A stretch of DNA of 64,000 nt from a virus: IMG/VR virus record IMGVR_UViG_3300005096_000058, positions 32,001 to 96,000 of that record. The stretch is one strand, 5' to 3'. Shown piece by piece: positions 5,895 to 35,891 of this stretch. The stretch's first letter is position 1, and each line of letters begins with the position of its first letter. A program made the position numbers and the translations under genes. The notes below the pieces were generated by a model. It worked only from the letters and a program-made list of their open reading frames with translations. It was not told the DNA's origin and did not search any database.

Positions 5895-5895
5895 G

Positions 5896-8184: not shown

Positions 8185-8185
8185 G

Positions 8186-9004: not shown

Positions 9005-9009
9005 GGGAT

Positions 9010-10767: not shown

Positions 10768-10771
10768 TTTG

Positions 10772-14669: not shown

Positions 14670-16106
14670 TTAGGGCTGCCCTTTGAAGTTGGGAGCGCGG
14701 CCGATGTTTTTGATCAGCACGGCTTTCCCGGGGGCGTAGAGCACCGGCACGCCGTAGACCAACTGCATCCAACGGATGGACGTGTTGATCGTGGCCAACG
14801 GTACTTTGAGGAATGGCGCCAGCTGTTTCCAGCTGAGACATTCCAAGTTTTGCTGCCAGAGGATCGCGATCGACGTGAACGGCAGACGATCGTTGAGATC
14901 CGTGACGGTGTGTTCACCGGCACCAGACGTGTTGGGGATGCGCGCGATGAGCCGTTGTTTGCCAACGGGGCCATCTTTGCGCGTGCGGTAGAGCTCGTAC
15001 CACTTCACACCGATGGCAGACCCGGGGGTCACACCAAACGTCATGGAGTCACCAGCGGCAACCGCGATGGCACCACCGCTGACCGCGACTGCGACACTGC
15101 GACCGGAATCGTTGTGCGCAGAAACGCTGTAGAAGTAGCTGCCCGCATCGTCCGCTCCGAAGAGTGATCCGACGTCGACAGGGGTCGTGGCACCCGTGGA
15201 GATCGTCGGGGTGGCTGGCCGTAGCGCAGCATCACCCGCGGCGGTGGTCTTGGGGGCACCACCGTCGTTGACGAACACGTTGGGTTCGAATTTGACGTCA
15301 CCAGCGGGGCTGGTGAAGCCAGACACGTCGAGGCCCACCATCCCATCTTTGCGCTTGTCCAGAAGGTCATAACGGCCTTTCGGGAAGAAGCTTTTGATGA
15401 GGTCGGCTTTGATCTTCGGATTCAGATGCAGATGCGTCGGAATGCCGTAGTTGGGCTCATCGGAAATGGTCAGTGCGGCGTCGATGAGAATGTCCTCGTC
15501 GAGCGGCTGACCACGTTGGTCGATGATGTTGTCAGCCGGCGCATTGTCGGTGATCAACTTTTCATAGCCATCGAACTGGATGTTCGACAGCGAAGAGTCC
15601 GCATAGAACATCGCGCGCTCGACGATGCGGAGAAGCCACATCGTTCCGGCCACGGTTTCGTTCGCGATGACATTGCCGTGAGCCGGGCGAATCAAGCTCA
15701 TGACATGGGACACGCTGCGTGTCGTTCCGAGGAACTTCACGGCGGCGTAGCGTCGGGCGTAGGTGGAGTCGTCTTCGGTCGGCAACGCCCCTTCCGAAAT
15801 GAACCCTTCAAGACCCTCGCCGTAGCTCGAAATCTCATTGTGCTCTTCTACTGTGTTGTACGCAGCCAATTTTGGGATCGCTTTGAACAGCCGAATGTGC
15901 TCCATGCGGTAGGTGACGTTTTTCAACGTCTGCTCCAAGGACTCCACGCGGAGCGGGAAGCCTTGCCCGGGCGCAGCACCGGGGTTGTTGATGTCGCCGC
16001 CCGCAGTGAGCGCCTTGTTGAGGTGGTCGAGGTCGGTCGAGGAGAATTGCCCGTCGCCGAATCCGTCCACCCCGTCGTAATCTTTCCAGGAAACTTGGTT
16101 CATCAT
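14670..16106 (-). CDS. Major capsid protein, Herelleviridae (phage K/A511)-like
   Basis: LRVESL, ERAMFYADS, FDGYEKLI, YELYR and LKVPLA...LVYGVPVLYAPGKAVLIKNI match recalled phage K capsid motifs; follows protease and scaffold. Confidence 0.92.
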   Translation of the reverse strand: MMNQVSWKDYDGVDGFGDGQFSSTDLDHLNKALTAGGDINNPGAAPGQGFPLRVESLEQTLKNVTYRMEHIRLFKAIPKLAAYNTVEEHNEISSYGEGLEGFISEGALPTEDDSTYARRYAAVKFLGTTRSVSHVMSLIRPAHGNVIANETVAGTMWLLRIVERAMFYADSSLSNIQFDGYEKLITDNAPADNIIDQRGQPLDEDILIDAALTISDEPNYGIPTHLHLNPKIKADLIKSFFPKGRYDLLDKRKDGMVGLDVSGFTSPAGDVKFEPNVFVNDGGAPKTTAAGDAALRPATPTISTGATTPVDVGSLFGADDAGSYFYSVSAHNDSGRSVAVAVSGGAIAVAAGDSMTFGVTPGSAIGVKWYELYRTRKDGPVGKQRLIARIPNTSGAGEHTVTDLNDRLPFTSIAILWQQNLECLSWKQLAPFLKVPLATINTSIRWMQLVYGVPVLYAPGKAVLIKNIGRAPNFKGQP

Positions 16107-16182
16107 TTTGATGTCCCTCCTTCAGGTTTTTTGTCTGGACAAAGGTTTTGAGCCCGTTAGGCCCGTGGGTGAAGCAGTTGGC

Positions 16183-16869
16183 TCAGGCCCGCTGCGGAGA
16201 AGCGCGTTGCACCTTGGCGACGTCCAGAACCTCTTTGGCGAGGCCCTTGGAAATCTCGTTGGTGATCTCGTACTTCGCGATGGCGGTGCTCATGTTCTCG
16301 CCGCTCTTCGCGAAGCCACTATTGTCTTCGGAGATCGTCTGCATGATCTCCATGACCTGCGACTTCGAAAGCTTGTTGCCCTCAGCCGGTTGGCCCGCGA
16401 GACTTTTCTCAATCGGGGTAGCGGCGGGAGCGTTCACGCCGGCACTGCGAACAGGGCCAGCCGGTTGTCCAGACAGCGCGGCCACTTGGTCAGAAAGGCT
16501 CTTCACGAGCTCACCCATCTGAACCACGGAGGTGGCGAGCGCGACCCGGAACTGGTGCTCCGATCCTTCGCTTTTCTCGATGCGATTGGCGAGGGTGGCA
16601 AGCCCTGCGACGACCGCGCCGTGTTGCTCTTTGATGTACGGGCTGACGTCGATGGATTTCACCATCGCGTCAGACTGCAGCGGGGCGGTGACATCAGCGG
16701 CGAGGCCGCCACCTCCGCCCAAGCTTTTCACGAGCTCGTCGCGTTCTTCGCCGGTGATGGTGCCTTCGTTGGCTTTGGCGAAAAGCAACTTCGATCGCGC
16801 AGCGGGATTGCTGGCTTCTGCTGCAGCCGTGAGGGCATCCAAGCCCGTCTGGAGTTGATTCTGGTCCAT
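16183..16869 (-). CDS. Capsid scaffolding protein
   Basis: Helical 228-aa protein between protease and MCP, with about nine xxKS/KA/KG sites. Confidence 0.75.
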   Translation of the reverse strand: MDQNQLQTGLDALTAAAEASNPAARSKLLFAKANEGTITGEERDELVKSLGGGGGLAADVTAPLQSDAMVKSIDVSPYIKEQHGAVVAGLATLANRIEKSEGSEHQFRVALATSVVQMGELVKSLSDQVAALSGQPAGPVRSAGVNAPAATPIEKSLAGQPAEGNKLSKSQVMEIMQTISEDNSGFAKSGENMSTAIAKYEITNEISKGLAKEVLDVAKVQRASPQRA

Positions 16870-16880
16870 GGTGGTTCTCC

Positions 16881-17723
16881 TTAGAGCATTCCCTGCTCTG
16901 CCAAGGTGGTGAGCACGCCGTAAGCGTGCTCGACGAAAGACGCGTCGGCTCCGGGGAACCGCGCGCGAATGGTGGTGATCGCTACGCTTTTGCTCAGCTG
17001 CTCATCCTGTGTGGCAGCGAGATCTTTCTTGTCGCGTTCCAATGACTGCGGGGACAGGATGCGACCTGCGCCCTCCCCCGTTGTGGGGCCCTGTGAGCTC
17101 GGATGCGTGCCTGCGGGTGCGGCGGCCCCGGTGGTAGCCGTCATGGCCTTGCTTGCCTCTTCAGCAGCTTCCTCGTCGCCCTCTTCCACGGCTACCAGGC
17201 TCTTGGCTAGACATTCCAGACGAGTGCCATAGCCGACCGGGCAATTGGTGATCGCGGTGTGCTTCACGACTGCTTCAGCGATCGTCTTGTTGTTAGGGCC
17301 GGTGCGGCGGACCACGTCGCCCTCAATTGAGAAGCCCAAGCGGCGCTCATTGCCGGCTTTGGCGAAAGCCAGTCCCAGGTCCCAGATGCGATTTGCGCGT
17401 GGGGTGTCGAGCATCCAGCCTTCAGCCCAGGTGCCGTTCGTGGAGGCGGTCGCGCCATCTGGGAGGCGATCGCCCTTCTGGAACCTCCGCACCTCTGTGG
17501 GGTAACCAAGCGGGCTGTCTGTATCTTTGCTGTGGTTGTCGTTGAAGAACCCAGTCTCCAAGAACGGCTTGAAATTGAGTCCCCTCTGGATCACCACCTC
17601 GCCTTGCTTGTCGAGAATGTTTGTGGAGATCACGCCCGCAATCCTCCTCCGTTGCCCACGCGCGCCGTCCGCCTTCTCAAAAAAGGACAGAGGGGCGAAG
17701 AACTTGAAGGGGTTGCTGCCCAC
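16881..17723 (-). CDS. Prohead protease
   Basis: DKQGE, FNDNH, LGFSIEG and AITNCPV motifs of HK97-type prohead proteases. Confidence 0.9.
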   Translation of the reverse strand: MGSNPFKFFAPLSFFEKADGARGQRRRIAGVISTNILDKQGEVVIQRGLNFKPFLETGFFNDNHSKDTDSPLGYPTEVRRFQKGDRLPDGATASTNGTWAEGWMLDTPRANRIWDLGLAFAKAGNERRLGFSIEGDVVRRTGPNNKTIAEAVVKHTAITNCPVGYGTRLECLAKSLVAVEEGDEEAAEEASKAMTATTGAAAPAGTHPSSQGPTTGEGAGRILSPQSLERDKKDLAATQDEQLSKSVAITTIRARFPGADASFVEHAYGVLTTLAEQGML

Positions 17724-17889
17724 GTTTCGTCTCCAGAAATAGAAAAAGGCGAAGTCCAGACGAAGCAGACTGCTTCCTCCGTGACCTCGCCCCTACTCGA
17801 ACCCTAAAAGCGGTTCCTAATCGGGCCTCACGCTGACGCGCTCGGTTGTGCTTCAGATTTATAGGTCCGTCTGGACTGAGTCAAGGAGC

Positions 17890-18090
17890 CTACTCGCGCA
17901 CAACGTAGCGCTCGGGAGCCAATTCCACGCCCTCATCCAAGCTGATCGGGAGGGTGACCGTCTTCTTGCACCAATGGCAGGAGGCTTCCGCCTTGCCGTC
18001 TGGATCGAAACGCACGACGCCAGTGATGCGTAGGCGCGTTTCGTCGCCGCTCTTCTGCAGAAGGCGGCCTTTGCAATGCGGGCATCTCAA
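17890..18090 (-). CDS. Small zinc-ribbon protein (Com-like)
   Basis: TTG start overlapping the upstream stop; RCPHC...CHWCK. Confidence 0.6.
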   Translation of the reverse strand: MRCPHCKGRLLQKSGDETRLRITGVVRFDPDGKAEASCHWCKKTVTLPISLDEGVELAPERYVVRE

Positions 18091-18440
18091 AGGATGTCCT
18101 GGAAGAGCTTGCCCAGATTCGTCTGGATGTCCGCTTCGTTCTCGGGCTTTGGAAAGATGGAGGGACGCCACGCGGGCGACAAGATCTTGTAGTAGCGATC
18201 CATCGTCGGCCAAAGAAGCGTCACCAAGCCACCCGCCGCAGGGAGTCGCACAATGCCCTCCTCTTCGTCGTCGAGGAAGTCAGGATGCTCGTCGAGGATA
18301 GGTAGCGTGACCGCCCCGTTACCTGGGATGTTCCTCAGATAGATGTCGCCCTGAGAGAAAAAAGGACGGACGACGTCAGTTAAGCGTCGATGAGGATTTG
18401 GGCGGCCGTCGAGGGCTAAATAGAAATGGTCGTATTTCAT
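18087..18440 (-). CDS. Hypothetical protein, candidate immunity partner or chaperone of the giant protein
   Basis: ATGA overlap with the stop of the 2226-aa ORF. Confidence 0.6.
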   Translation of the reverse strand: MKYDHFYLALDGRPNPHRRLTDVVRPFFSQGDIYLRNIPGNGAVTLPILDEHPDFLDDEEEGIVRLPAAGGLVTLLWPTMDRYYKILSPAWRPSIFPKPENEADIQTNLGKLFQDIL

Positions 18441-21400
18441 GGGGCAGGCACCTTCAAGCCTTTGCAGGCCTTGTTGATGGAGGCGTTATTCTGCGTTGGG
18501 CTGGTGAAGAAGAAATCAGCGACGGGGATGTTGTTGATCTCAGTCTTCCCCGCTGACGTCAGCGTCTCAATCAATCCAGATCTGACTTGGTCGGAAGCAC
18601 ACCACACACCTGCAATGTCCTCGTGTGCGACACCATGCTCAAACAAGACTTCATGGCTACTAGAATTCAAATTGAGTGTGTCAGGTTTTGACTTAGCCGG
18701 TGCTTGCGATCCGTAACCGTCGTGGTTGTGGGCCCAATAATCAGCCCGCTTCAGAATGCGAGGTCGATAGATATAGCGCACGGTAGAACCCGTATTGTAG
18801 CCATGCACACCGCTCGCCTGAGGACCACCTTTGCGTGCGATCCTCGTGAACACGCCTGCTGCGCCACCGGTATTCACGTCGGAGCCCGCCTGTGACGAGT
18901 AGGGTGCGGTGCCGGTTGTGTACCCCTGCTTCCGAGAGGGGACGCCAGTTTCTTGGAGCAGAAAGGCTGTGGCCGCACCGGGTGAATCGGCACCCGTGTG
19001 CACAAATTGCACGTCTTTGAGATCAGCATCGGTGATTTGATCAAATTCAACGGTGTGGGCGCCGCCCGCGCCCACCTTGATGCGGGCTGTGTCGACGTAC
19101 TTGTCGAATCCAGATTTCTTGAGTTGGGAGTCGAGCCAAACTTCGTTGTCGTAGTTTTTCCGAGAAGCGCCCCAGTAACCCTTAGCCCCTAACGAGTTTC
19201 GCACAAGCTGCGATTTGATGAATAGCCGCTCAGCTTGTCCATCATGCGCGCTGGCAGCTAGCGCGGGCGCGATTCCCGCCAGCTGCAAGCCTTGTTGAAG
19301 TTCCGTTTGCACATCTTTTGACGCGGGGATACGCGCAACGAAGCGGTTCCGCATCGCCAACCCCCCATGGGCTTCAGGGGCTAGATCGCCGTTGTGCGCC
19401 ACGCCTACGTAGGACCCCCCGTCCGTGAGCCCATCAAAACCAAACCAGCCCCCCTCAATGACGTTGTCTCCTTTTTTGTGGAGCCCAGTGTCCTCGTCAT
19501 ATACGTCGTACACCGCCCCACCAGCTTCATCCGTGGTGGAGGTGTATTTGATCTTCCCTTTAGAAAGCTTGGATTTCTGCGGGTTGAAATTAAGCAGGTC
19601 GCCCGTGACCTCAAAGAAATCCTCGCCGTCTGGATTCGCAACACGGCGGACGCTGATCTGGCTGTTGATCCAGAGTCCCGCGCCGCCATGCCTAATCGTG
19701 TGACCCCAATGCCCCATCTTGATCGCATCGAGAGCACCGAGGTCAGCCTCGTTGTTGATGGCAAGCTCGCCTTGCTTCTGCGGCCCAAGAGCAAACGGGG
19801 GGGCCGACTGCGCAAAAGCAGGAGGCAGATCGGGAAGCTTGGGCGTAGTCACCGTCGTGGTTTCCACCGCGACGTCAAGGTCCGCTTTTGTCACGGTGAA
19901 CACCGTGTTGGTGGCCACCATGGGCTCGCCGTGAACAGTGATGCTCTTGTCTGCAAGATATTGTTTGGCGGCTGCTTGCGCCTCGTTGGTAATCCCGCCG
20001 AATTTGATGACAATTTTATCACTGTCCGTGTCGTGCGGCTTGATCTTTTTAGGCTTCCCGAGGCCCTCTTCCGAAAACCCAGACACGAAATCAGCGACCA
20101 CCTCATGTTTGACTGTTTTGGTGGTCACTTCCGTCTGCTCAAACGTGGTGCCCGCAGGGTAGTCAACGTTGTCTGGACCCTTGATCGTTTGCGTGCCTGG
20201 GAAGCGGTTGGCGAGTTCGTCCTTGCTCACGCCGAGCATGTCCCCAAGAGGAGAGGTTACGTCCGTCGACGGGGGCATACTTTGCCAGTTGGCCACCGCC
20301 TCTTTGAACTTCGCTGAATCCTTGCCGGCAATCAGGAAGTTACCTTCCCCATCGTCGTGCACGTGCAGCCCACCCTCGTAGCCCAGGCCAGCTAGCTTCT
20401 CCTGCAAGAAGGACAGGGTGAGGAGGTCCGAAGCCTTGTTGGATTGGGGGTGGGACTTCACCCAAGCTGCCCACGCCTTGGCCTTCTTCACTTTTTCAGA
20501 GTCAACACTTGGTTTTTTTACCGTCGGCGCGAGAGGTTTAGGTTTCTTCTTCTTTTTGACCGGGTCACCAGGCCACTGCACAGAAGCACCACCGGCCTCC
20601 TGAATCATCGAGGCCGCTTTTTTGGCGGTGAACCCCTCGCTGAGGGTGACGCCCTGTTTGTTCGTGACGCTGAACATGGGGTTCAACGCATTGGCTCCTG
20701 GACCGAGTGAGCTAAGCGTTTCCCCCCACTTGGTGTGTAGCTTCACGCCTGCCGGGAGGGCGTAAATCTTATCTATGACCGTCGTCAGTTTCAAATTGGA
20801 AGGAAGTGACTTCAGTTTCTTCTTGCCAGCGTCTGGACCCGGGGAATCGAGGTCGGCATGGTCTACATACGGAGGCTGTGCAGCCGACTCAGCCACTGTG
20901 GTTTCGGCGGCGTACAGTTTGGAGGAAACGTCGGCGTCTGTGGGTACGTCGGCCCACGCACCGCTGCTAGGCCCGGGCCCAAAGAATTCGACTTCCCAAT
21001 CGAGCGCGTGGTCAGCTAGAAACGACGCTAGGGCCTCTGTAGGGGCCGCGCTCAAACCTTGTTTCGCATAACAATACAGTGAGTCATCTTCTAAATTAAA
21101 TTCAGCCGCATATTTCTCTTGCACAGACGCGAGCGCGACGTACTCGGCTAGCGGTAGTTTGTCGACGACGACTTTGTTCTTCTGCTCCGGTGGGATGTCC
21201 TGCGGGTGAACGCCGATCGCTTCACCTGCGGTGGGCAAAGCCTTGTACGTAGCAAACGAAACGTCTTGAGGGAAAGACGCATCAACGAGTTTGAATGCCG
21301 CCTTCACCTCGGCAATTGTCAGATTATAGATACCCATGAGATCTGCGAGCGCGTAATCCAATGCGAGAGCGGACGACGACGACTCAGCCCCATGGACAAT

Positions 21401-24400
21401 CTTTCCATCCTCGTCGATCGCCACAAACTTCAGTGTCGGCGAAGCGTCTCCGTCCTCGCCGTACCCGGTCGCCGATGGGGTGATCCAGATCTTCTCACCG
21501 TGCAGCACCCCTTCGAGCCAAACACCCATCGGAGGCACCCACGACGCCCAATGCGGGGATTTCATCCCGAAAGTCTTGTTGGGCTTGCCCGGGACAGGTA
21601 ATCCAGACAGCTTGGTGGCATTGCTCCAGACAACATCTTTGTCGGGGAAATCTGGCAGCGCTTCCTTTGTCGTGACCACGGTGGGTCCGATGTCCCCTGT
21701 GATGCTCGGGGTGGCTGGCTCCGGGTCAAGGTTGGGCGGACCTCCTGCGAGGAGCAGCTCCAAGGTGGTTGGATCTTTGGCCTCGACGGGTTGGCCGCCC
21801 TTGAGGTCGACGGACCACTCAACCGACTCAGAAGAGAGCCATTCCGCCGTGTAAACCATGTCCAGCTTGGGGTTCAGCCACTTACCTTGCGGGAAGTCTT
21901 TGTGGCTTATTTTCGTGAAGGTGTCTATTCCGTCGTTGATCTCAGCGTCAACGGGGAGCGCGTCTAGCTCAGCCACCGTGAGGGGCTTGGTCCCCGACGT
22001 GTCTGGAGATCCGGGCTGGTCCTCGATACTCAGCGCATGTTCGATCATGTCGCTGACTGTGTAGCTGGCACCGCTGATGGTCTGGAAAGCTCCAGACAGC
22101 TGCTTCTTGTATTGGTAGCCCGCCACGTCCTTCAGCACCGTGCCAAAAACCAAAGCTTTAAGCTGTGCTGCGGTGGGCACCTTCGATCCCTGCCACGCGA
22201 GAGAACTCGGGGGTGGTGGCGGCTCACCGATTGAATTCACCTTCAGACCACCAAAGCCCGAAGCGGCGTCCTCAGCAACGTCCGCACTCAACTCTGTGGC
22301 AGTGAGTGCTGTAGTCATCGACCCACCCATAGGCTTCCACCCGTCAGGGTGTTTGACCCAGCCCTCACCCTCAGGGTCAGAGTTGGGGAAGGGCTTAGCG
22401 ACCGGGTCGCCATAACCCAGCACAGAGCCTATGGGGAGCTCGTCGAGCTCATCCGCGGTGGGACTCTTCCAACCATCCCAGCCAGGTTCTCCGGGTGGCT
22501 GTAGGGCTGCTTCCGCCGTGGTCGCGATGACGTTGGCGAACTCCATGAACTCGCCCGTCTTGGGCTTCACACCGAAGAACTTCCAGCCGCCTCCTGAAGC
22601 GATCTTCGTTTTGCCCGTCTTGGCTTTGTAATCGGCTTTGCCGAGATAGCCCTTCTGGACGAGCCAAACGTGATCACTGGCCGCGCTCAGGCTTTTGTGT
22701 TTGGTGACGTCGTCGCCCTTTGGGGCCTTGATCGTGACCTCAAATCCCTCCTCCAAAACTTCCAGCTGCACCTTGAGTTCCCCGAGGTGATCAAAAGGCT
22801 TGGTGAGCTCGTGCTTATGACCAATAGGGAGGGGACCACCCTTCTTCGGGTATTTCACCTCTTTGGGCGTCTGGACTTTCTTAGCTGCGGGGGTCACTTC
22901 AGCTTGAGGCGCTGGACCTGCCGGGAGCGGCTTTGGCTTTGGTTGCTTGGCGGTTTGCGTCGCCTTGGCGGCAGCAACTACCGACGGGAGAGCGAGGACG
23001 GACTTCAAACTTTGGGATGCAGGGTGCGTTGACCCGAAGACCACGGGGACACCAGTTGAGGGCACTGTGACGTTTTTGAGCAGCGGGGCACCGCCTTCGG
23101 CGGCCTGATGGACGACCCAGATGTCGAACGTTCCATCCGCGCTGAGAATTTTGATGACGCTGCCAGGCAGAGGGAGCGTTTTTGGCCAATCATGCGGGAC
23201 GGATATTGCAGCATGCTCCATCGCGAACGTCAGGGCCGCTGGGGGAATGAGCGTGGAGTCGGTGACGATCCCATCTTCAACCGCGGCCAGCATCTCGTGC
23301 AGCGTGATCTCTTTCTTCTCGGGGGCTAGGCCCAGCTCAGCCATGAGTTCGTCAGCGCTCATGCTCCCGATCGTTGGCTCCGATGTGGTGCCTGCGGCCT
23401 GGAACTCCCCTTCAAATTGCTTCAGCGCGAAAAGCTTGGTGGCCGGGTAGGCGATGCCTTTGGCTTTCTTTTCCGTCGAACCCATGTCTAGAGGCAAACC
23501 CTTGTTGAACAGCTGCGTGCTGTCCGCAGCCGCTGCGGGGGAGGGGTAGATCTTTGTGGTCCCGTTGGGGAAAAGCACTGCGATCGCAGGCTTCCCATCG
23601 ACGGAATCAAAGCCAAACTCAAAAACGTTGCCCGCCATCTTAACCGCGGCCTGGTATCCGGGGCCGGGGTATTTGGTGGGCCAGCCGGGGGGATGCTCAC
23701 CACCAGGGGCGTGCACAGTCACGTTCCCCTTGGTGACGGGCCAGCCGGGTGTCTGGACGAAGTCGACGATCTTCTCGGTCTTATCCTCGACGGGGGTGAT
23801 CGCAGGCTCATCTGCGGCTGACGGGATCGTGACTTTGTCCCCCGTCATCTCAGAGAGGAATGTCTCCCAGTTGCTGCGGAGATCTTTGAACCGCTTCTCA
23901 ATCAGCGCCCATTTTTTCTTCGGCTCAAAGTCTTCCAGACCCTGCGCGGCGTCTTCCAGATAGGGGGCCACGATGCTGTGGTACTGCTCCACGGACAGGT
24001 TCTTCTCGATACTGAGCAACACCTCCGTGACAGCTTTGATGGGGTCGCCTTTGATTTCCCCGTTTTGGAAGAGCTTCCACATTGCATTGTACGCGGGAGA
24101 ACTCGCGTTCAATTTATAGCTGGTGCTGAGCTTGTCTGCGCCGATCGCTTTGAACGCTTGGCCTTTATCAATAGCGGCGAGGTCACCACCGAGCGTCTCG
24201 ACGAAGTTGGCCCCGTGGCTATCGTGGTTGGACATCATCCAATCCAGCACTTGGTGCTGCACTAGCCGCTCAAAATGTTTTTGAAGCTTGGCTTTAGTGG
24301 TCCCGTGATCACCACTGACCTCGTTGCCGATGGTACCTTTATTGTCGACCCACGACAGGAGCACCCCTTGGTCGCCAGCGTGCTCAATCATCTCCGCGTC

Positions 24401-25117: not shown

Positions 25118-25149
25118 GCTCCCACCCTACTCGGGAAGCTGCGACCGGG

Positions 25150-25428
25150 CTACTGGACAACGTAGAGCTCAACCGCTTTTTTCTGTGGAGCGCCGAAGCT
25201 TTTAGCCAAGGCGGATTCAAGGTCGGCAGCGTCAGGGAGCGCGTGCCTGGCCGCGAGCTCGCCGTCTGCACGGATGTCGTAGAACGTCCCCGTGAGCTCG
25301 GGGCTGTTACGCTCGATCTCCAGGTTGCGCTTTCCAGACACCCAAGCCCGCGCGTACGCGCCAAGCACTTGCATACCAAAGTCCGTGAACGATCCGTCTG
25401 CGTTTTCAGTTGGTAAGGTCATAGCCAA
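25150..25428 (-). CDS. Hypothetical protein
   Basis: 92-aa ORF overlapping the MuF-like gene stop; contains LAKS site. Confidence 0.55.
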   Translation of the reverse strand: MAMTLPTENADGSFTDFGMQVLGAYARAWVSGKRNLEIERNSPELTGTFYDIRADGELAARHALPDAADLESALAKSFGAPQKKAVELYVVQ

Positions 25429-27941: not shown

Positions 27942-28339
27942 GTGATGGCCCGGTCGTGGTCAAGCGGGAACGCCTTGAGCACGATCTTCGGCTTACTAAA
28001 AAAGAACTCACGGATGCGCTGCTTGAGAGGTGGTCGGTACGCGGGCAGACCGGAAGCGATGCGGTGGTGCTCATCAAGGGTGTTAAACATGGGCGCCTGC
28101 TTAATGTCACGCCAGAACTCCACGTGCTCCATCTTAAAACTGACGCTGCGTAGCGTCAGCTCCAACGGCTCCGCGCGCCAGCCCACGCCTTGGGGGGGTA
28201 ACGTGAGCGCCTCAAGTACCTCACCATGTGTCAACCGCGTGACCGGCTTGTACCCGAGGTCCAGGTTAGCTGCGAGCATGGCACCAGCAATACCAATACC
28301 AAGCTTCTTAAAGAATCCGCGACGTGTATCTGACATCAT
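27911..28339 (-). CDS. Hypothetical protein with twin-arginine-like N-terminus
   Basis: SDTRRGFFKKLGIGIAGAMLAA. Confidence 0.5.
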   Translation of the reverse strand: MMSDTRRGFFKKLGIGIAGAMLAANLDLGYKPVTRLTHGEVLEALTLPPQGVGWRAEPLELTLRSVSFKMEHVEFWRDIKQAPMFNTLDEHHRIASGLPAYRPPLKQRIREFFFSKPKIVLKAFPLDHDRAITCPTPRGRLG

Positions 28340-28797
28340 TTTGAGTCTGCTTTCTTTGTCGACTCCGTGAACAGATCGCGGAGCTCGTTGACGCTCATGC
28401 CGTAAAGCGGGCCGCCTTCTTCGAAGTCTTCCGGGGTGTAACCCTGACCAATGAGCGCAGCCTGCATCTTGTCATAGGCAGCTTGCTCCTCGTCGACCAT
28501 TTTGGCCGTGTAATCTGGGCTCGCTGTTGCGCTCTTGACCATGTGGCCGTCCACCGTCTGGACAATCTCTGTGATCATGCGATCGAAACCGCGTTGGGCT
28601 CGGGCGCGCATTTTCGTGTGGAGGTCGCGAAGCGCCTGGTGCTTGAGGACGGGTTCGTGCGCGGGGGCCGTGGCCGCCTTCTGCAGCCGGTCAGCGAGCG
28701 CAGGAGCATCCTCCCCGAGCGCTTTGGCCATCGCGTCGAGCAACTCCGACCCACGCTCACGCAGCTCCTCAGGCGTAGCTTCCAGACGCAATTTCAC
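28336..28797 (-). CDS. Hypothetical head-associated protein
   Basis: GTG start overlapping the upstream stop; LQKA and MVKS sites. Confidence 0.6.
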   Translation of the reverse strand: MKLRLEATPEELRERGSELLDAMAKALGEDAPALADRLQKAATAPAHEPVLKHQALRDLHTKMRARAQRGFDRMITEIVQTVDGHMVKSATASPDYTAKMVDEEQAAYDKMQAALIGQGYTPEDFEEGGPLYGMSVNELRDLFTESTKKADSK

Positions 28798-29195
28798 GGC
28801 AGCGCGTCTCCCCACACAGCCCAGATGAGACGGAGGTCTGCGATCGGGGTGACGATCAAAGCGGAGACGTCGCATTCCATAAAAACTTTAGACTCAGCAA
28901 ACACGGCAGCGCTGGCCCCTGTTGCCCCGCGCCGCACCTGGAACGGGCCGGCGCCGTTGATCAACAGATCGAAGTCCCCTGTGGCGCGAAGGAAGAAACC
29001 TTTACCCACCGTCACCACTGCGCCAAACGGGACGGTGAACGCACCATCTGACGAGAGCAGATTTTTGGCGTCGCTGGTCTGTGAGGTGAACCCATCGAGG
29101 ATCGCCTCAGAGAGGGCATCGTCCAGACCCAGCAACACGTTCTTGCCGTCCGCGTCTTCGGTGATCTTGGGATTAACTGTGTGCCTGATACGCAT
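28794..29195 (-). CDS. Hypothetical virion protein
   Basis: 133 aa, AGGAGG RBS right after the portal stop. Confidence 0.65.
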   Translation of the reverse strand: MRIRHTVNPKITEDADGKNVLLGLDDALSEAILDGFTSQTSDAKNLLSSDGAFTVPFGAVVTVGKGFFLRATGDFDLLINGAGPFQVRRGATGASAAVFAESKVFMECDVSALIVTPIADLRLIWAVWGDALP

Positions 29196-29204
29196 GACGC
29201 CCTC

Positions 29205-32200
29205 CTATAGGTCGAGGTCGATGCTCACAATACCCGGCACCGCCGCTGGTGTCCCCTGCCCCCCCAAAGCCTGTGAGGACCAGCTGCCTTTGCCGAATGG
29301 ATTTCCTCCCCCAGACGAGCCCTTCTTGGCTTCCTCATCGGAGGTGGCAGCTGCGCCGTCCTCAGCATCTGCTGCGTTCTCGTTTTGGATGCCATCGAGT
29401 TCACCACCGAATGCGGCGTCCGTGCCGTCGTCCTCCGCAAAGTCTCCGGTGCCCATCTCCTGCTGCGCCGCCATCGTCTTGTTTTGCATCCAGACAGCGT
29501 GGAGAATGACTTGCCCCTCTCCGTCTGGAAGCGGCGGGAGATCTTCCTCGGCACGCACCTCGTCGACCATCTTGTACGATGTCACCTGCTTTGTATTGAG
29601 GTCAGCGAGCTCGTCTGGGGTTTGCGCGTCCAGACCGACAAAAGCGAATTCGAAATCTTCGTCGATGCGGTGAACGAGGAAGGAGGACAACCGGTGCTGG
29701 ATAAATCGGAGAAGGGGCTGCAGCCCTTTGTCTTTGGACTGCGCCAGCTTTTGCTTGTTGCTCGACTCAAACATCGAGCCGCCGCTGCCCCCGCTGTCCC
29801 CATATTTGAAGTTGATCTCCATCGGATCCATGCCGTAGATCGCGCACGCCACCTTGATCAGGAAATCAAACCACGCGCTGAATTCCATGTCGCGGTTGGA
29901 TTGCTGCAGGTTGATGTATTGGAGCTCCTCCGCATTTGTGATCGGAGTTTTGAATGCGTTCTCGACGCCAGCGACCATCGAATACCAATGACGGCGAAAA
30001 GCGCGCAGCTGTTTCTCAGGCACGGCACCTTTGAAGTTGATGATGCCTTTGGTCGACGTGCCTTGGCTGTTGTGCACGGCCATGTGGTTGAGCACGAACA
30101 GGTGCTCGTCGTTGAAAACCTCGACATCGAACATCTCACGATCTTCGTCGGCGTGACCAACAACCTCAACCGGCACCTGTAGGTAGCGCAGCCACGCGGG
30201 CTCCTCAGCACCGAGGCGTTGCAGAAGGTGGATTGCGTAGGCGCGGCTCATCGTCACGCGTCCCCCCGACGCTTTGCGGGCCATGTCGCGCTCCGCAACA
30301 GAGAGGGACTTGTAGTTGTCGTGCTTCCAGACGTGCGTACCAAGGTTGCGGCTCAAGTGCGGGTGCAACCGGTCCCAGCGATCGCGCTGAGCAGGACTGC
30401 GTTCAATCCCCTCGTTTTTGTACGCCTGCAAATAACCCACGGACGACGTGAAAGAGGCGATGTCCTGCACGGTGATGGTACCGTGTCGGCTCGCAGCTGT
30501 GCCTCCACCCACAAGGTTTGAAGCCACGCCCACCGACCACAAACACTTGAGGATGTCCTGCGCCAGAGCCGGATCGGAGGAATGCACGCTTGGGGTACGG
30601 TAACCTGTGGCGTGTGTGGCGGTGCAGCCATCAGCACTGAAGATGCCGCGGAGCAAAGCGGCACGGATGTGCGCTGGCTGGCGGTAGACACTTTCAGGGA
30701 TGCGCTTACCCTCACGAGACGGGCGGAAACCAATGTCACGCAGCCAGCGGTGGAACGCTGTGTGGCATATTTGCAACGCTGGGTAACCAAACTCGCCATC
30801 GCTACGCTCGATGGTTTTGTTGATCACACGGTCGGTGCAATGAATACCATGCCTCACGCAAACAGCCTTAAACCGTTCGAAGAGATCAGCATCACGAGAA
30901 TAGTGCGGGAAGACTTGCAACCAGCTGGGGGTGTCTCGCCCTTCATCGGGGAAGTACCCATCACCTAGCGCGAAGCCCATGAACTCCCAAAATTCAGGGT
31001 CCTCAATGAGCGCTTTCGTGGGGCGGAAGTCGCGTCCTGTTTTTCGATCGGTGTCGTAAACGCGGTCGACGAGGAGGGTCTCATAATCGAATTCAGGGTC
31101 GGAGCGCTCATAGCTGACCAAGGCGAAATCGCCGGCCTGCAAGTCTTCTTGGCGGACCCATTCGGGATCACCATCACGGGAGCTCGCTGGGATCACGCGG
31201 TACCTATGGTCGGGACTGGTGGTGAGCTCCAGCCCATTCCACAATGTGGTGACCGCGGTGACCTTCTTGCCTGTGGGGAAAGCGCGCGCCTCCCCCCAAG
31301 TGCCTGGGCCAGTGCTGGCCACGAAGTTTTTTCCAGACAGATCCCTCAAAGGGATCAACCCTTCTGATGTGGTCACCAGCCCGTCGCCATCCGCACAAAA
31401 GAATTTCTGATTATAGTCCCATGACCAAAGTAACGACGTCACCGTCGAGATCAACATCTCTGTTTCGGCAATCCCGTACCCTTGGTTTCGGATGTCCGTG
31501 ACCGGATTGCGAACACCAAAACACATCTGATCAGCGCCATATTCGGCTGTGACCAGGCCGTCGTAGATCTGGACGTAGCGGGTCTCTTCGGGTGTGCCTT
31601 GGTAGTAAAGCTTGGTTGTGTCCGCGATGCGCAGCGTGGCGCCGTCAACGGCGTAGAAGTCGTAAGGCTTGTCACCACGATCTTCCCGCACCTCGAAACC
31701 CAGTTGGTCATAGGTCAATGCGTCGCGCACGATCTTGCGCAAGAACGTCTCAAAATTGTCGCGAGCATTGGGTGTGCCGCGGTCGTTGACCTTGCCCGTT
31801 GTCATCACCCAGTTGGTGATCTCTTTGCTCTTCTTTTCGCTGGCCTTAGAGGGGGAAGCCTTGCGATCACGCAACTGGATGCGAAAGCCTGTCTGGAACT
31901 TGTCCTCCTGCGGCAGACTGAAATTGGCCATCTGGTCGGTGCGCGTCTTGATGATCGCCTGGATGATCGGCATGCGGAAGACCATCGCCGACAACGTCGA
32001 GTAACTGATTGAGCTTGGCCGCTCTTTGTATCCGAGCGCGTCAATGACTGAGAACGGATCCCAGAACAAGGCTTTGGGATCGCTGACCGGATCACCAATT
32101 TCTGACGGGTGTGGACCGGCCGTTGCGGGCGTGTCCGTAGTGGGTTGTGCGCCGTCGTCACCCTCATCCTGCGCCTTGGACAGCACATCGAGAGCCGCCG

Positions 32201-32246
32201 TAGAGGCGGCTCCCGCTGCTTCCCTCACTGTGTCGAAGAGCCCCAC
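29205..32246 (-). CDS. Portal protein (intein-containing precursor, about 570 aa after splicing)
   Basis: FLRKIVRDALTYDQ, AVDGATLRI, DMEFSAW, SKDKGLQPLL and EVRAEEDLPPL portal motifs. Confidence 0.92.
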   Translation of the reverse strand: MGLFDTVREAAGAASTAALDVLSKAQDEGDDGAQPTTDTPATAGPHPSEIGDPVSDPKALFWDPFSVIDALGYKERPSSISYSTLSAMVFRMPIIQAIIKTRTDQMANFSLPQEDKFQTGFRIQLRDRKASPSKASEKKSKEITNWVMTTGKVNDRGTPNARDNFETFLRKIVRDALTYDQLGFEVREDRGDKPYDFYAVDGATLRIADTTKLYYQGTPEETRYVQIYDGLVTAEYGADQMCFGVRNPVTDIRNQGYGIAETEMLISTVTSLLWSWDYNQKFFCADGDGLVTTSEGLIPLRDLSGKNFVASTGPGTWGEARAFPTGKKVTAVTTLWNGLELTTSPDHRYRVIPASSRDGDPEWVRQEDLQAGDFALVSYERSDPEFDYETLLVDRVYDTDRKTGRDFRPTKALIEDPEFWEFMGFALGDGYFPDEGRDTPSWLQVFPHYSRDADLFERFKAVCVRHGIHCTDRVINKTIERSDGEFGYPALQICHTAFHRWLRDIGFRPSREGKRIPESVYRQPAHIRAALLRGIFSADGCTATHATGYRTPSVHSSDPALAQDILKCLWSVGVASNLVGGGTAASRHGTITVQDIASFTSSVGYLQAYKNEGIERSPAQRDRWDRLHPHLSRNLGTHVWKHDNYKSLSVAERDMARKASGGRVTMSRAYAIHLLQRLGAEEPAWLRYLQVPVEVVGHADEDREMFDVEVFNDEHLFVLNHMAVHNSQGTSTKGIINFKGAVPEKQLRAFRRHWYSMVAGVENAFKTPITNAEELQYINLQQSNRDMEFSAWFDFLIKVACAIYGMDPMEINFKYGDSGGSGGSMFESSNKQKLAQSKDKGLQPLLRFIQHRLSSFLVHRIDEDFEFAFVGLDAQTPDELADLNTKQVTSYKMVDEVRAEEDLPPLPDGEGQVILHAVWMQNKTMAAQQEMGTGDFAEDDGTDAAFGGELDGIQNENAADAEDGAAATSDEEAKKGSSGGGNPFGKGSWSSQALGGQGTPAAVPGIVSIDLDL
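30069..31397 (-). mobile_element. Intein with LAGLIDADG homing endonuclease in the portal (443 aa)
   Basis: QKFF|CADGDG...TTSPDH...MGFALGDG...LRGIFSADG...MFDVEV...AVHN|SQG. Confidence 0.92.
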
Positions 32247-32254
32247 AAGGCCGC

Positions 32255-34789
32255 CTAGTCGTCGAAGGTGAGCCCACCGGGCGCGAGAAGGTCACGACCT
32301 GGTACGGGGCGGCGCAGGCCGGGGCCCTTGCTGTGCGTCTGCGGAATGTCAGCTTGGGCCTCTGCGGTAAAGCCCTTCTGGAGGGAGCCGCCCATGCGAT
32401 CCACGCCGCACGCGGGACATTTGGTGAGCGCCTTCATCACGCGCGTGCCGCACGCGGGGCACGCAAGACTCTTGGTGAGGTCGTTCCCCATATCGAAGCC
32501 AGGTTGGCGGCCGTGATACCCGAAGTTGTCTTCGCTGCTCTTGAGCAGCGCGACACAAGCCCGATCAGAAATGTCCGTCATGATGATCCCACCCTTCATC
32601 ATGACCCGCACCGGTTGGCTCTGCAGCGGAGCTTCTTGCCCAACACTTTCCCGGACACCGAGGCCCATGACGATGTCGTCTCCACCCTTGCGCAGCGCGC
32701 TCACAGCTGCAGCATGGGATCGCTGCTCTGAGATCGTCTCTTGATCTGCGTGCAGAGGCATGCCGGTTTGCGCATCGATCTCAGCTTTGCTGAACAGCTT
32801 GGAGGAACTTTCGTTCTGATGCAGGCCAGGGGCGCCAGTTTGTGGGTTACTTCCAGACGGAGCTCCGGGGCTGGCTCCAGACGCGCCACCTTGAGGGTCG
32901 TGCGTGCTGGCGCGCATGGATTGTTGGTTGCCGGTGTGGTTGGAGCCATAGGCAGGTCCGCCTTGGCTGCGCTTCTCGCCGATGCCAGCGGCTCCCGTTT
33001 GGGGATTGCTTCCAGACGCCGCTGCGGAGCTCGGTGCTCCAGGCATGGGCGCGGTGGCGTCGCCGTAAGCATTACCGCCTTGGCTCGCTGCGGAGCGCTG
33101 AGCACCCTGCGCTCCGTAGGCGCCAGCGGGCGCGCCGGGCATGGAGATCATCCCCAGTTTCGACTTCATTTTGTCGGTGTCGTTGGGGTCGTCGGGGGTG
33201 AACTGGTCGGTCTTGCCCGCACCGGTCATCTTTGTCGTGGATTGCATGTTCGCCATTCCTCCATCGGATTTTCCAGACGTGGCACCGACACCGTCCAGCT
33301 TACCACCATCTTCGCCACGGCTCACTCCGACGTTTCCGGTGTAGCCGTTGCGCTCATCCAAGCCACCACGCACTCCCTTGGGGAGGGGTTTGCCCGCAGT
33401 GCCGCCGCCGTAGTTGCCGGTGCCGGGACCAACAGCCTTACTGAGCCAGTTGTGCGGATCGCTGAGCCAATCCCCAAGCGCGCCGTCACCAGCGAAACTT
33501 TTGGACATAGATGGTCCATGCAGCTCTTTCAGCGATTTGCCTTTGTGTTTCTTTGGCACGCGGTCGTCGTGCTCGCCGGACATGGCTTCGTCGTGGAATT
33601 GGTCAGCCATCACTTTGGCAGCGGCTTGTCTAGTCGGCACATCATGCGCGGGAGCTCCGCCTGACATCTTTTTCGAAGAGGCGGTGGTGAGGTGCGTGAA
33701 GAGTTTGGTGGCTTGTGCGTGGTCGTACTTGCCCGCTGCCATTTTGCGCGCGAGGTTGTCACGGATGGGTTCGTGTTGTTGCTGGTGGAGATCGCCGTCG
33801 TTCTCGGTGGTGAGCACGAGATCGCGGGCACCCTCAGGGTCGTGCTTCTTCGCCGTTGGGGCATTTTTGCCTGCGTGCTTCTTGTCGTTCCACGGGATCT
33901 TGTGCGCGGCGTCGGCCCACTTGCCGCCGCGGACACCGATGAACGGGCCGCCCGCCTTGCTGATCTCCGATTTCTTGAGGGGACTACCGCCCGCTTTTTT
34001 GCTGTGGTGTTGGGCTGATCGCAACTGGAAGTTGGCAGCCTCTTCGTGCTCGCTATCCCCACTTTCTTTGTGCGCCTGTGTGTACGCTTCTGATGCGTTC
34101 GCATGGTGCTCAGCCATTTTGGCGTGCATCTCTTTCTTCGCTTTACCCCGCAAACTTTGACTGCGCATAGATAGGTTCGCCGCCTGTTGCGCGTGCTGCT
34201 TGGCCTGCTCATAGATCGGTTTTCCAGACGCAGAATGACCTACAACGTTGCCTCCACGGGTTCCTTCACCCTCCCCCTTCTCGACGAGGTCATCGTAGCT
34301 TTTGGAGAATGTGTCCTCAGCAGCAAGGTCGAGAATGTCGTCCTCTCCACGATCGGAAAGCCAAGCGTTCAAACCGCCCTTGTTCATGTCCGAATAGTCG
34401 TCCATGTTCTTCGCCATGGGTGGCCCCTCATTCGCTTCCGACCCCTCTTCTTTCGCGGCCTCAGCTTCAGACTCGTCGGGCTCGTCATCGGAACCACCTT
34501 CGGCGGTGACATCGACCTGCTCAGCGGGCTTGTCGGTGCCGGCCTTGCTCAGCTGGGCTGAGCGGGAGTCATGCCATTCGTGCCGGGACTGGTGCCCAGA
34601 CGTCTGGGGATCGTCGACGAGGCCCATCTGGAGTTCATCAAGCTGACCGGTGCTCTTCGCCAATTCGCGGGACGCGTCGCGGGCGAGTGCATGGGCGGCC
34701 GACGCGCTCTTGTGTAACGCGGGCGTGTTCTCCTTCTCGGCCTGGGTGGAGGCATCAAAGGCAGCTTTTGCGAGGTCGTTGTAATTCAT
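32255..34789 (-). CDS. Putative internal head polyprotein with about 19 xxK[A/S/G] sites and a C-terminal zinc ribbon
   Basis: 844 aa, low complexity; CPACG..CPACG; lies between terminase and portal. Confidence 0.65.
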   Translation of the reverse strand: MNYNDLAKAAFDASTQAEKENTPALHKSASAAHALARDASRELAKSTGQLDELQMGLVDDPQTSGHQSRHEWHDSRSAQLSKAGTDKPAEQVDVTAEGGSDDEPDESEAEAAKEEGSEANEGPPMAKNMDDYSDMNKGGLNAWLSDRGEDDILDLAAEDTFSKSYDDLVEKGEGEGTRGGNVVGHSASGKPIYEQAKQHAQQAANLSMRSQSLRGKAKKEMHAKMAEHHANASEAYTQAHKESGDSEHEEAANFQLRSAQHHSKKAGGSPLKKSEISKAGGPFIGVRGGKWADAAHKIPWNDKKHAGKNAPTAKKHDPEGARDLVLTTENDGDLHQQQHEPIRDNLARKMAAGKYDHAQATKLFTHLTTASSKKMSGGAPAHDVPTRQAAAKVMADQFHDEAMSGEHDDRVPKKHKGKSLKELHGPSMSKSFAGDGALGDWLSDPHNWLSKAVGPGTGNYGGGTAGKPLPKGVRGGLDERNGYTGNVGVSRGEDGGKLDGVGATSGKSDGGMANMQSTTKMTGAGKTDQFTPDDPNDTDKMKSKLGMISMPGAPAGAYGAQGAQRSAASQGGNAYGDATAPMPGAPSSAAASGSNPQTGAAGIGEKRSQGGPAYGSNHTGNQQSMRASTHDPQGGASGASPGAPSGSNPQTGAPGLHQNESSSKLFSKAEIDAQTGMPLHADQETISEQRSHAAAVSALRKGGDDIVMGLGVRESVGQEAPLQSQPVRVMMKGGIIMTDISDRACVALLKSSEDNFGYHGRQPGFDMGNDLTKSLACPACGTRVMKALTKCPACGVDRMGGSLQKGFTAEAQADIPQTHSKGPGLRRPVPGRDLLAPGGLTFDD

Positions 34790-34826
34790 GTCCAGAACCC
34801 TAACTGATAGATCTGCGTGAGTCTTC

Positions 34827-35891
34827 TCACGCTTTGGAAGGAGCGAGTTTGCCCGCCGTGTGTACGAGCTCGCCGGCCTTCACGGAGTCACGGATCGCGT
34901 CTTTGACGAGTTCATCGTCGTAGCCCCCGTAGCCCTTGAGATCATCGAGGGTGCATCCCTTGCCCACGCGTTTGGCTAAGCCCTCCCGGCATTTGCGCTT
35001 GAGGACGTCCCGTCCAGACACGTGCGCACCGTCTTGTTTTGCGTAGTCGTCTTCGTTGTAGAAATAGCGGTGCTTGCCCGTTTCTTTGTCGGTGACACGG
35101 CGGTGGTAGCTGCCCCCACGGGGTGAAGCCTTGCGCATTGACTCGTCAAAATCTGGATGTGAGTCGTCGCCGTCATTGTCCCACGCTTGTTGCGCCATCG
35201 CTCGGCCCGCCGCATCCATTGCGAGGCAATAGCGCACCCCTTGGTCAGCCTTGCGTAAACCGATTAGGCGGCGTTGCAAACGCTCGGCCTCATTCTGGTT
35301 GTTGCCGTGGTCTTGGTAATACCGGGAGGCACGTTGCACCACGGCACGACGCTGCACGCTGTCCAGCTGCATGTACTGCAGCTTGTGGTTCAGTGAGGTG
35401 CGGTAGTTCACCTCGGGGTGATCCATGTTGGCTTGTACCAGCGCCTGAATTTCGTGCTCCTGCCCTTGCGAAAGGGCAAGTCCGCGGGTGATCCCTGCGG
35501 GGGTGAGCACCGGCTCGGTGAAGGCCAAAAGCTTGGCCACCGTGCGCCCGCCTTTTGGCATTGCCGTGAGCGAGCTCGGGATGCTCATACGTGGAATTTG
35601 GCCTGCGATGATGCCTGTGGCTTTACTGAGTCCACCGTTACCTTCGGTCATGGTCAGACGGTCATACTTCACGTCGACAGTCAAACCACTAGCGTCGTCG
35701 CTGCCCGCCATGGGCTGATTGTCCTCAACGAGGACGTGGAAGCACGCGCCCTTGGTGGTCTTGCTTGTAAAACCACCGCCCATCGTCTGGTAAATTCCAG
35801 ACACATAGGCGTAGTTTTCGCCTTGCCCTTGTTTGGCGGCCTGCTCTTTGGCGCGGGCCCATTTGTCGTGGTCGGTGACGTTTGCCGGCAT
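34827..35891 (-). CDS. Putative internal head protein
   Basis: 354 aa; LSKA, LRKA, MRKA sites and SPRGG motif. Confidence 0.6.
   Translation of the reverse strand: MPANVTDHDKWARAKEQAAKQGQGENYAYVSGIYQTMGGGFTSKTTKGACFHVLVEDNQPMAGSDDASGLTVDVKYDRLTMTEGNGGLSKATGIIAGQIPRMSIPSSLTAMPKGGRTVAKLLAFTEPVLTPAGITRGLALSQGQEHEIQALVQANMDHPEVNYRTSLNHKLQYMQLDSVQRRAVVQRASRYYQDHGNNQNEAERLQRRLIGLRKADQGVRYCLAMDAAGRAMAQQAWDNDGDDSHPDFDESMRKASPRGGSYHRRVTDKETGKHRYFYNEDDYAKQDGAHVSGRDVLKRKCREGLAKRVGKGCTLDDLKGYGGYDDELVKDAIRDSVKAGELVHTAGKLAPSKA

Follow-up and report, generated by a model that had tools for sequence, protein, structure and literature searches.

The stretch analysed here, referred to as the window, comprises 64,000 nucleotides (bases 32001-96000) of the 110,147-bp IMG/VR virus record IMGVR_UViG_3300005096_000058, which has direct terminal repeats and a G+C content of ~59%. 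Essentially all genes in the window lie on the minus strand. We focus on the head module of this uncultured phage, several proteins of which are punctuated by a short lysine-containing motif that is probably recognized by the prohead protease. The module encompasses genes for the terminase, a 354-aa and an 844-aa protein, the portal, small open reading frames (ORFs; 133, 153 and 142 aa), a MuF-like/InPase protein (840 aa), a 2226-aa protein, the protease, the scaffold and the major capsid protein (MCP). Its principal features are as follows:

14670..16106, minus strand: MCP of the type found in Bacillus phage SPO1 and Listeria phage A511, 478 aa (PHROG 752, E 1.7e-83)
16183..16869, minus strand: scaffold protein, 228 aa, with 9 motif sites, assigned from the motif count and the same gene position as SPO1 gp3.3
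16881..17723, minus strand: prohead serine protease, 280 aa (PHROG 1028, E 1.5e-31)
18437..25117, minus strand: Lys-rich head-module protein of 2226 aa
25419..27941, minus strand: MuF-like/InPase polyvalent protein, 840-aa ORF with a likely start at 27914 that would give 831 aa (PF18823; PHROG 115)
28336..28797, minus strand: 153-aa protein with 3 sites (the ORF call reaches 28875)
29205..32246, minus strand: portal, 1013 aa including an intein (Phage_portal PF04860, PHROG 12)
32255..34789, minus strand: head protein, 844 aa, with 19 sites; a weak Zn-ribbon match was the only hit to Pfam or PHROG
34827..35891, minus strand: 354-aa protein with 5 sites
35941-39144, minus strand: large terminase with an intein

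The initial annotation of this locus had called attention to recurrent [LIMFV]-x-K-[ASG] tetrapeptides, and all those that it listed are present in the genes to which they were attributed. For each protein, the expected number of matches was derived from residue shuffles that keep its composition, and Poisson probabilities were calculated. The scaffold carries 9 sites versus 1.24 expected (Poisson 6e-6) and the 844-aa protein 19 versus 3.4 (4e-9), so that the approximate counts given initially proved exact and both exceed the shuffles. An excess is also apparent in the protease (5 versus 0.86; 2e-3), the 354-aa protein (5 versus 1.26; 9e-3) and the 153-aa protein (3 versus 0.61; 0.02). These five head proteins are the only ORFs at p < 0.02 among the 137 minus-strand ORFs of the genome, and after correction for 137 genes, the scaffold and the 844-aa protein alone remain significant singly. 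By contrast, the enrichment foreseen for the head proteins at large does not extend to the 2226-aa (12 versus 12.9), MuF-like (5 versus 3.1) and portal (2 versus 2.6) proteins, which are at expectation, as is the terminase (2 versus 2.7). Over the whole genome, the motif is denser in the five proteins, at 21.8 sites per 1000 aa versus 3.2 elsewhere, a contrast that is post hoc because the group was picked by its enrichment.

For the protease and the 354-aa and 153-aa proteins, the claim of enrichment is based on replication in relatives rather than on single-protein probabilities. The relatives compared include two genomes, G001 (MCP 90% identical) and G002 (58%), further contigs (MCP 40-56%) and SPO1. 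In genome-wide scans of G001 and G002, the scaffold contains 10 sites versus 0.9 and 10 versus 1.3 expected, respectively, and the homologue of the 844-aa protein 16 versus 3.2 and 14 versus 4.6. The protease shows an excess in G002 (6 versus 1.4) and SPO1 (8 versus 1.56), the 354-aa family pooled over three genomes has 13 sites versus 3.8 (4 versus 1.38 and 4 versus 1.15 in the two homologues), and the G001 homologue of the 153-aa protein has 3 versus 0.70. In the distant contigs, 9 sites were counted in the scaffolds and 19 in a 1061-aa protein, and L-[RN]-K-A is present near residue 30 of an MCP. Overall, the scaffolds of relatives harbour 9-16 sites each, and in the SPO1 scaffold, gp3.3, there are 11 versus 1.31 expected.

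When each of the 20 residues was placed at P1 in [LIMFV]-x-X-[ASG], an excess was observed for Lys only (41 versus 7.5), whereas Arg was at expectation (5 versus 5.9). In the five proteins only, the positions around Lys are enriched in L/M/F at P3, Ser at P2, Ser at P1' and Gly at P3', and motif variants in which P1' is not small or P3 is not hydrophobic occur at or below the expected counts. The MuF, InPase and 844-aa core domains together contain 47 Lys and not a single motif. The proteins in question are rich in Lys, Ser and Ala and were grouped post hoc, which might point to an artefact of composition or chance; however, the shuffles keep composition and the result recurs in independent genomes (40-90% MCP identity) and in SPO1. 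We reject such an artefact for the scaffold and the 844-aa family and regard its overall probability as negligible.

The motif coincides with the annotated capsid maturation site of the relative A511. The MCP is 36-38% identical to capsid proteins of Herelleviridae (SPO1, SP-10 and CP-51 types), and its predicted maturation bond, K31/A32, is located in LNK/A (codons 16011-16022; here and below, the slash marks the predicted scissile bond). In the RefSeq record of A511, the mature peptide begins at S24, that is, the bond is K23/S24 (...A-L-K/S-F-T-T-G), an assignment that reportedly goes back to N-terminal sequencing by Loessner and Scherer in 1995. In a multiple alignment, K31 shares a column with A511 K23 and with the Lys of SPO1 LNK/A, in agreement with the equivalence of LNK/A to the A511 Lys-Ser bond suggested initially. 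The scaffold sites are FAKA30, LVKS46, MVKS69, IEKS97, LVKS121, IEKS153, LSKS167, FAKS186 and ISKG206. The gene order protease-scaffold-MCP (17723 to 14670, minus strand) is the same as in SPO1 (gp3.2-gp3.3-gp6.1) and A511 (protease-gp85-cps).

The protease is 33-39% identical (tblastn) to the annotated procapsid proteases of SP-10, SPO1 and YungSlug; it matched no Pfam family and has no sequence relative among solved structures. H64 (in NDNHS) and S132 (in GFSIEG) are invariant in seven sequences, including those of SPO1 and A511, and are the presumptive catalytic residues. A Lys-Ser dipeptide directly following the catalytic domain is likewise invariant (7/7 aligned sequences), and self-cleavage is predicted at K174/S175 (17199-17210) and at LSK/S 243-246 (16986-16997). 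The C-terminal tail of the protease repeats the N-arm of the mature MCP (...G...L..ESLE...); the repeat begins after the invariant Lys-Ser in A511 and after the second downstream site in the other six sequences, and in A511 the two segments are nearly identical. Thus, the enzyme carries its own substrate sequence, and the tail would plausibly take the place of an MCP N-arm, bringing the protease into the shell. A third copy of the N-arm (33% identity to MCP residues 32-94) is found in the 142-aa ORF (27911-28339, minus strand) between the 153-aa and MuF-like genes, which begins with a twin-arginine-like signal, SDTRRGFFKKLGIGIAGAML, and is also present in G001.

The 844-aa protein, for which no GenBank phage homologue was found, ends in a Zn ribbon. 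In an AlphaFold2 (AF2) model built with 11 homologues, 534 of the 844 residues have a predicted local distance difference test score (pLDDT) below 50 (~63% predicted disorder). Apart from an N-terminal helical hairpin, there is a single confident helical domain (residues 303-427; nt 33509-33883), which is bracketed by ISK/A 276 and MSK/S 428 and contains 16 Lys and no motif. No enzyme domain was found with Pfam, and a fold search against 48,161 PDB chains matched residues 1-57 to helical hairpins of a generic kind only (Z <= 7.2) and gave nothing useful for residues 303-427. Most of the pieces between sites are 5-40 residues long. The homologues carry 6-20 sites each, of which only those at residues 699 and 748 and the one preceding a conserved tag, described below, are fixed in position, whereas the others drift. 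The retention of many sites despite drifting positions fits selection for many cuts in flexible sequence.

The sites in the 153-aa protein are MAK/A, LQK/A and MVK/S. In G002, a homologue of this protein forms the first ~95 residues of a 1991-aa SNF2 polyvalent protein, and LEK/A plus a tag come next. The portal has LSK/A near its N-terminus (residues 22-25; 32172-32183), retained as LAK/A in G001 and G002, and the SPO1 and A511 portals also contain N-terminal motifs. The 2226-aa protein carries LSK/A at residues 13-16 (codons 25070-25081), the G001 counterpart having FAK/A plus LSK/A. The other sites of this protein were discarded, given that they occur at chance density and that their conservation in G001 reflects conserved flanks only; for the 2226-aa, MuF-like and portal proteins alike, the candidate cleavage sites are limited to individual ones conserved in position. 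The 2226-aa protein is also strongly depleted in Arg (8.8% Lys, 1.1% Arg), as is a 546-aa protein encoded at 60983-62623 on the minus strand (6.2% Lys, 0.9% Arg), compared with about 4-9% Arg in the rest of the genome. Between portal and terminase, G002 encodes three giant polyvalent proteins, namely, the 1991-aa SNF2 helicase, a 1575-aa protein without a Pfam family and a 1909-aa protein with GNAT, ART-PolyVal (ADP-ribosyltransferase) and PAPS-reductase domains; at this position, the window phage carries the 2226-aa protein plus a shorter set.

Some of the sites are followed by a tag of 20 residues, GP[FY]IGPRGGKWAD..H.IPW. Every homologue of the 844-aa protein has ...h-x-K-[AGS]-(G)GP[FY]IG-x-[RK]GGKWAD..H.IPW ahead of the helical domain. 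In the 844-aa and 354-aa proteins, the tag and its variants are located as follows:

33869-33931, minus strand: tag of the 844-aa protein, GGPFIGVRGGKWADAAHKIPW
34196-34258, minus strand: tag variant of the 844-aa protein, GEGTRGGNVVGHSASGKPIY, right after a site, VEK/GEGEGTRGGNVVGHSASGKPIY; repeated in the G002 homologue and at the C-terminus of the G001 MuF protein
35058-35120, minus strand: tag variant of the 354-aa protein, SPRGGSYHRRV...GKHRYFY, after MRK/A at residues 252-255, MRK/ASPRGGSYHRRV...GKHRYFY

A search of IMG/VR with the back-translated tag pattern yielded 100 stretches representing 89 distinct contexts, and in 80/89 of these, the full motif is found 4-9 residues before GPRGG (shuffled mean 7.3). 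The pre-tag Lys is missing in 9/89 contexts (His in five and Arg in two; IMG/VR contigs L053, L065, L101, L034, L038 and L089). The idea that such tags mark phages with a different protease specificity was rejected, as the MCP, scaffold and protease of the phages checked still use Lys motifs. Of the tag-bearing contigs tested, 24/25 carry the MCP family of the window phage (27-64% identity). The tag was found in no GenBank phage, matched no Pfam family and is predicted to be disordered on its own; the pattern occurs in only 6 of about 185,000 species genomes. The 3.5-Mb chromosome of Myxococcales bacterium bin5 (CP070713.1), a metagenome-assembled genome, encodes a tagged 858-aa protein with 10 motifs together with an MCP 60% identical to that of the window phage, which points to a related prophage and to hosts among the Myxococcota.

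The 1909-aa protein of G002 contains five site-plus-tag units, which separate its N-terminal part, GNAT, ART-PolyVal, an unassigned part and PAPS-reductase. Comparison of the 153-aa/SNF2 pair and of the tagged modules across relatives indicates that modules are either fused or separate, the break falling at a site. Following the initial annotation, all marked proteins, the 844-aa protein included, could be viewed as cargo polyproteins, the products of which are kept in the capsid and ejected as peptides and enzymes. This would be in line with the placement of the genes in the head module beside MuF, portal and InPase, the classic virion-delivered polyvalent parts, and with the delimitation of GNAT, ART-PolyVal, PAPS-reductase and SNF2 modules by site-plus-tag units in G002. 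However, the 844-aa protein, with no enzyme domain, extensive disorder and mostly short, scaffold-like pieces, fits poorly, and we consider a cargo role for the entire set unlikely. In the light of its model, the 844-aa protein looks more like a scaffold or a disposable core protein than an enzyme chain or cargo. As for the units themselves, we tentatively entertain the possibility that site and tag together form a modular loading-and-release cassette: each cut module would keep the same N-terminal label and dock to a common head partner (DNA, the capsid inner wall or the portal) for retention and ordered ejection. Such a cassette would be a counterpart of encapsulin cargo-loading peptides and would allow free swapping of modules.

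The MuF-like/InPase protein provides a view of the sites at the joints of a polyvalent chain. InPase, a pyrophosphatase of the polyvalent type (PF18823, E 5.9e-31), spans residues 320-450 of the 840-aa protein, and the N-terminal region is MuF-like (PHROG 115 minor head protein, E 6e-5), with tblastn matches to Herelleviridae minor capsid proteins. Accordingly, at least two unrelated domains, the MuF-like anchor and InPase, are combined in one virion-associated chain; the homologues add further modules, including PolyA_pol, Zeta toxin, RelA_SpoT, ddrB-ParB and others. Three sites are of particular relevance:

26985-26996, minus strand: LVK/A, residues 316-319, before InPase
26553-26564, minus strand: LSK/A, residues 460-463, after InPase
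25893-25904, minus strand: LDK/A, residues 680-683, followed by the tag LFLGPRGGKWADPQHTIPY at 25815-25877

All five motifs of this protein fall outside the folded parts, with the folded MuF and InPase domains containing 31 Lys and no motif. The two InPase-flanking sites were compared in 120 homologues (32-100% identity), which differ widely in their C-terminal modules. At the site preceding InPase, P3 is hydrophobic in 96/97 sequences, Lys is present in 98/106 and A/S/G in 103/110, with P2 freely variable; at the one that follows it, P3 is hydrophobic in 96/102 and Lys is present in 73/102. In the AF2 model (mean pLDDT 66; MuF and InPase >90), the first site closes the helix joining MuF and InPase, and the second lies in a stretch with pLDDT <50 past the last InPase helix. 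The proposal that the sites mark domain borders is thus borne out for LVK/A and LSK/A, which flank InPase and are conserved in about 100 of the 120 homologues. By contrast, the 'ParB-like' label given to the piece downstream of LDK/A finds no backing in Pfam: residues 683-840 had no match at E <= 1 and have pLDDT <50, and the middle and MuF pieces matched no Pfam family either.

Conceivably, the junctions might be cut by another enzyme after delivery, either a host trypsin-like protease or a peptidase embedded in the polyvalent protein, and autoprocessing of polyvalent proteins by their own metallopeptidase (MPTase) domain has indeed been proposed (PMC5512222). However, no peptidase family was detected in the 840-, 844- and 2226-aa proteins (Pfam E <= 0.01; pieces searched again at E <= 1-10), and the junction motif is the same as in the MCP and at the self-cleavage sites of the protease, which makes this scenario very improbable. 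Neither is it probable, albeit to a lesser degree, that only ordinary Herelleviridae-type maturation takes place, with cuts in the MCP, protease and scaffold, and with the 844-, 354- and 153-aa proteins and the MuF/InPase borders keeping their motifs uncut as structural elements (helix ends or part of the RGGKW tag). Several sites do lie at the C-terminal ends of predicted helices, L-x-K-[AGS] is an almost fixed prefix of the tag and the MuF protein lacks an overall motif excess; nevertheless, the drift of the 6-20 sites in the 844-aa family fits selection for the number of cuts rather than for structure, Arg never replaces Lys and no other helical protein in three genomes displays an excess.

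Given that the same signal is present at the annotated capsid maturation site of A511, the head protease probably cuts all marked proteins. We propose that a Herelleviridae-type, Lys-specific prohead protease dices the scaffold-like proteins and cuts the polyvalent head proteins at module joints, which we regard as the probable explanation of the observed pattern. The enzyme would cut after Lys in [L/M/F/I/V]-x-K/[A/S/G] wherever this motif is exposed inside the procapsid. Very probably, it would remove the first 31 residues of the MCP, cut off its own C-terminal tail, the MCP N-arm copy that probably carries it into the shell, and chop the scaffold into pieces of 10-35 residues; this specificity and the predicted action on the MCP, on itself and on the scaffold are well supported. 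From enrichment, conservation and placement, we infer that the substrates of the same enzyme also include the 844-, 354- and 153-aa proteins and the polyvalent joints. These three proteins would be diced, supplying additional material of the core or scaffold type along with one small tagged helical domain, and conservation of the sites suggests that N-terminal propeptides would be trimmed from the portal and the 2226-aa protein, and that the MuF-like anchor, the InPase domain and the C-terminal module of the polyvalent protein would be separated. In this phage clade, many released modules would start with the conserved tag, and the new Ala, Ser or Gly N-termini would, we infer, be stabilizing under the bacterial N-end rule. 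More speculatively, the freed enzymes might be retained in the head and reach the host together with the DNA.

The proposed mechanism is consistent with the confinement of the motif excess to head-internal proteins among the 137 genes, its recurrence in G001, G002, the contigs L003-L006 and SPO1, and the AF2 models, in which sites lie in low-pLDDT linkers or at helix ends and folded domains are motif-free. Several observations weigh against it. The cuts in this phage and its close relatives are predictions, and the motif is not predictive by itself: three matches persist in the mature MCP, and the 12 of the 2226-aa protein are at chance frequency. Because these matches are unselected, the motif must be insufficient for cutting, and exposure must matter. 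The enrichment in the 354-aa and 153-aa proteins is weak for each protein singly, and the conserved L-x-K-[AS] might simply belong to the tag that it precedes. The expectation that the sites would be found in linkers was only partly upheld, as LVK/A before InPase is in a confidently predicted helix rather than a loop, and the preference of the 844-aa sites for low-pLDDT regions is not significant (15/41 versus 4/22 Lys, p = 0.16). Overall, the initial view of one protease cutting the products of several head genes is retained as probable on the strength of the MCP alignment, the invariant Lys-Ser, the enrichment and the conservation of the InPase flanks, whereas its extension to ejection into the host is speculative.

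The terminase and portal genes contain inteins with LAGLIDADG domains (35941-39144 and 29205-32246, respectively, both on the minus strand; Pfam Intein_splicing/LAGLIDADG_3 at terminase residues 148-526 and portal residues ~333-726), which are absent from the orthologues in G001 (644 and 638 aa). The tail-region proteins (4638-12800, minus strand) are extremely poor in Lys (0-1.7%), compared with 5-9% in the head-internal proteins, and a 400-aa protein from this region (10772-11974) has none.

The closest counterparts of the system are found in Herelleviridae (A511 Cps; SPO1 gp3.2/gp3.3/gp6.1), which share the homologous protease, the MCP and the position of the scaffold gene, the SPO1 scaffold and protease displaying the same motif excess. 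Unlike Herelleviridae, the 110-kb, 59% G+C window phage adds the 844-aa multi-site protein, the tagged modules and the MuF-InPase polyvalent protein. In the literature searched, the coverage of which was incomplete, we encountered no account of Herelleviridae scaffolds with a multi-site Lys motif, of polyvalent proteins cut by a prohead protease or of the tag.

In T4, the substrates of gp21 include gp22, gp67, gp68, the internal proteins IPI-III and Alt. With its three-residue recognition motif, this single prohead protease trims both the MCP and itself, cuts up the scaffold core to yield small peptides and cleaves the targeting propeptides off injected proteins (PMC9026906 and established knowledge). 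T4 cuts after Glu ([L/I]-x-E), whereas the window phage is predicted to cut after Lys; furthermore, the T4 capsid-targeting sequence (CTS) precedes the cut and is discarded, whereas the tag follows the predicted cut and would stay on the product. In phages phiKZ (gp175) and SPN3US (gp245), cleavage at a common A-x-E motif processes many head and ejection proteins, and long propeptides are cut several times (PMC10052503). Similarly, several head-internal proteins and the MCP of the window phage share a predicted protease motif. However, phiKZ and SPN3US are jumbo phages with a T4-like protease and separate substrates bearing N-terminal propeptides, rather than multi-enzyme chains cut at every joint.

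Short conserved peptides on unrelated cargo of an HK97-fold shell are exemplified by the T4 CTS and by encapsulin cargo-loading peptides. The DarB localization signal of phage P1 is another short conserved peptide for capsid targeting (PMC9024508). Unlike these targeting peptides, the RGGKW tag is internal, occurs up to five times per chain and would become N-terminal only after cleavage; a targeting role is hypothetical. Polyvalent proteins were defined by Iyer et al. (2017), who proposed processing by an embedded zincin-like metallopeptidase (PMC5512222). The fusion of the MuF-like anchor to PF18823 InPase conforms to this definition, as do the ART-PolyVal, GNAT, SNF2 and PAPS-reductase modules that relatives add in a virion-gene context. 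In contrast, no embedded peptidase, which is frequent although not obligatory in the family, was found, and the joints carry the prohead protease motif and the tag. Taken together, the system would be a Lys-specific, Herelleviridae-derived variant of T4/phiKZ-type head processing, the new part being the conserved post-cleavage tag.

Provided that the cuts are real, both the proteome of mature virions and the set of enzymes delivered would become predictable from a simple sequence rule in a large clade of uncultured ~100-kb phages, and the rule would extend to part of the Herelleviridae, among them therapeutic phages of Staphylococcus and Listeria. If the proposed mechanism is true, polyvalent proteins would gain a processing route without an embedded peptidase, which would explain the shuffling of effector modules between phages at standard junctions. 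The site-plus-tag cassette could also find use in loading foreign proteins into phage heads and releasing them, a purpose that the T4 CTS has already served.

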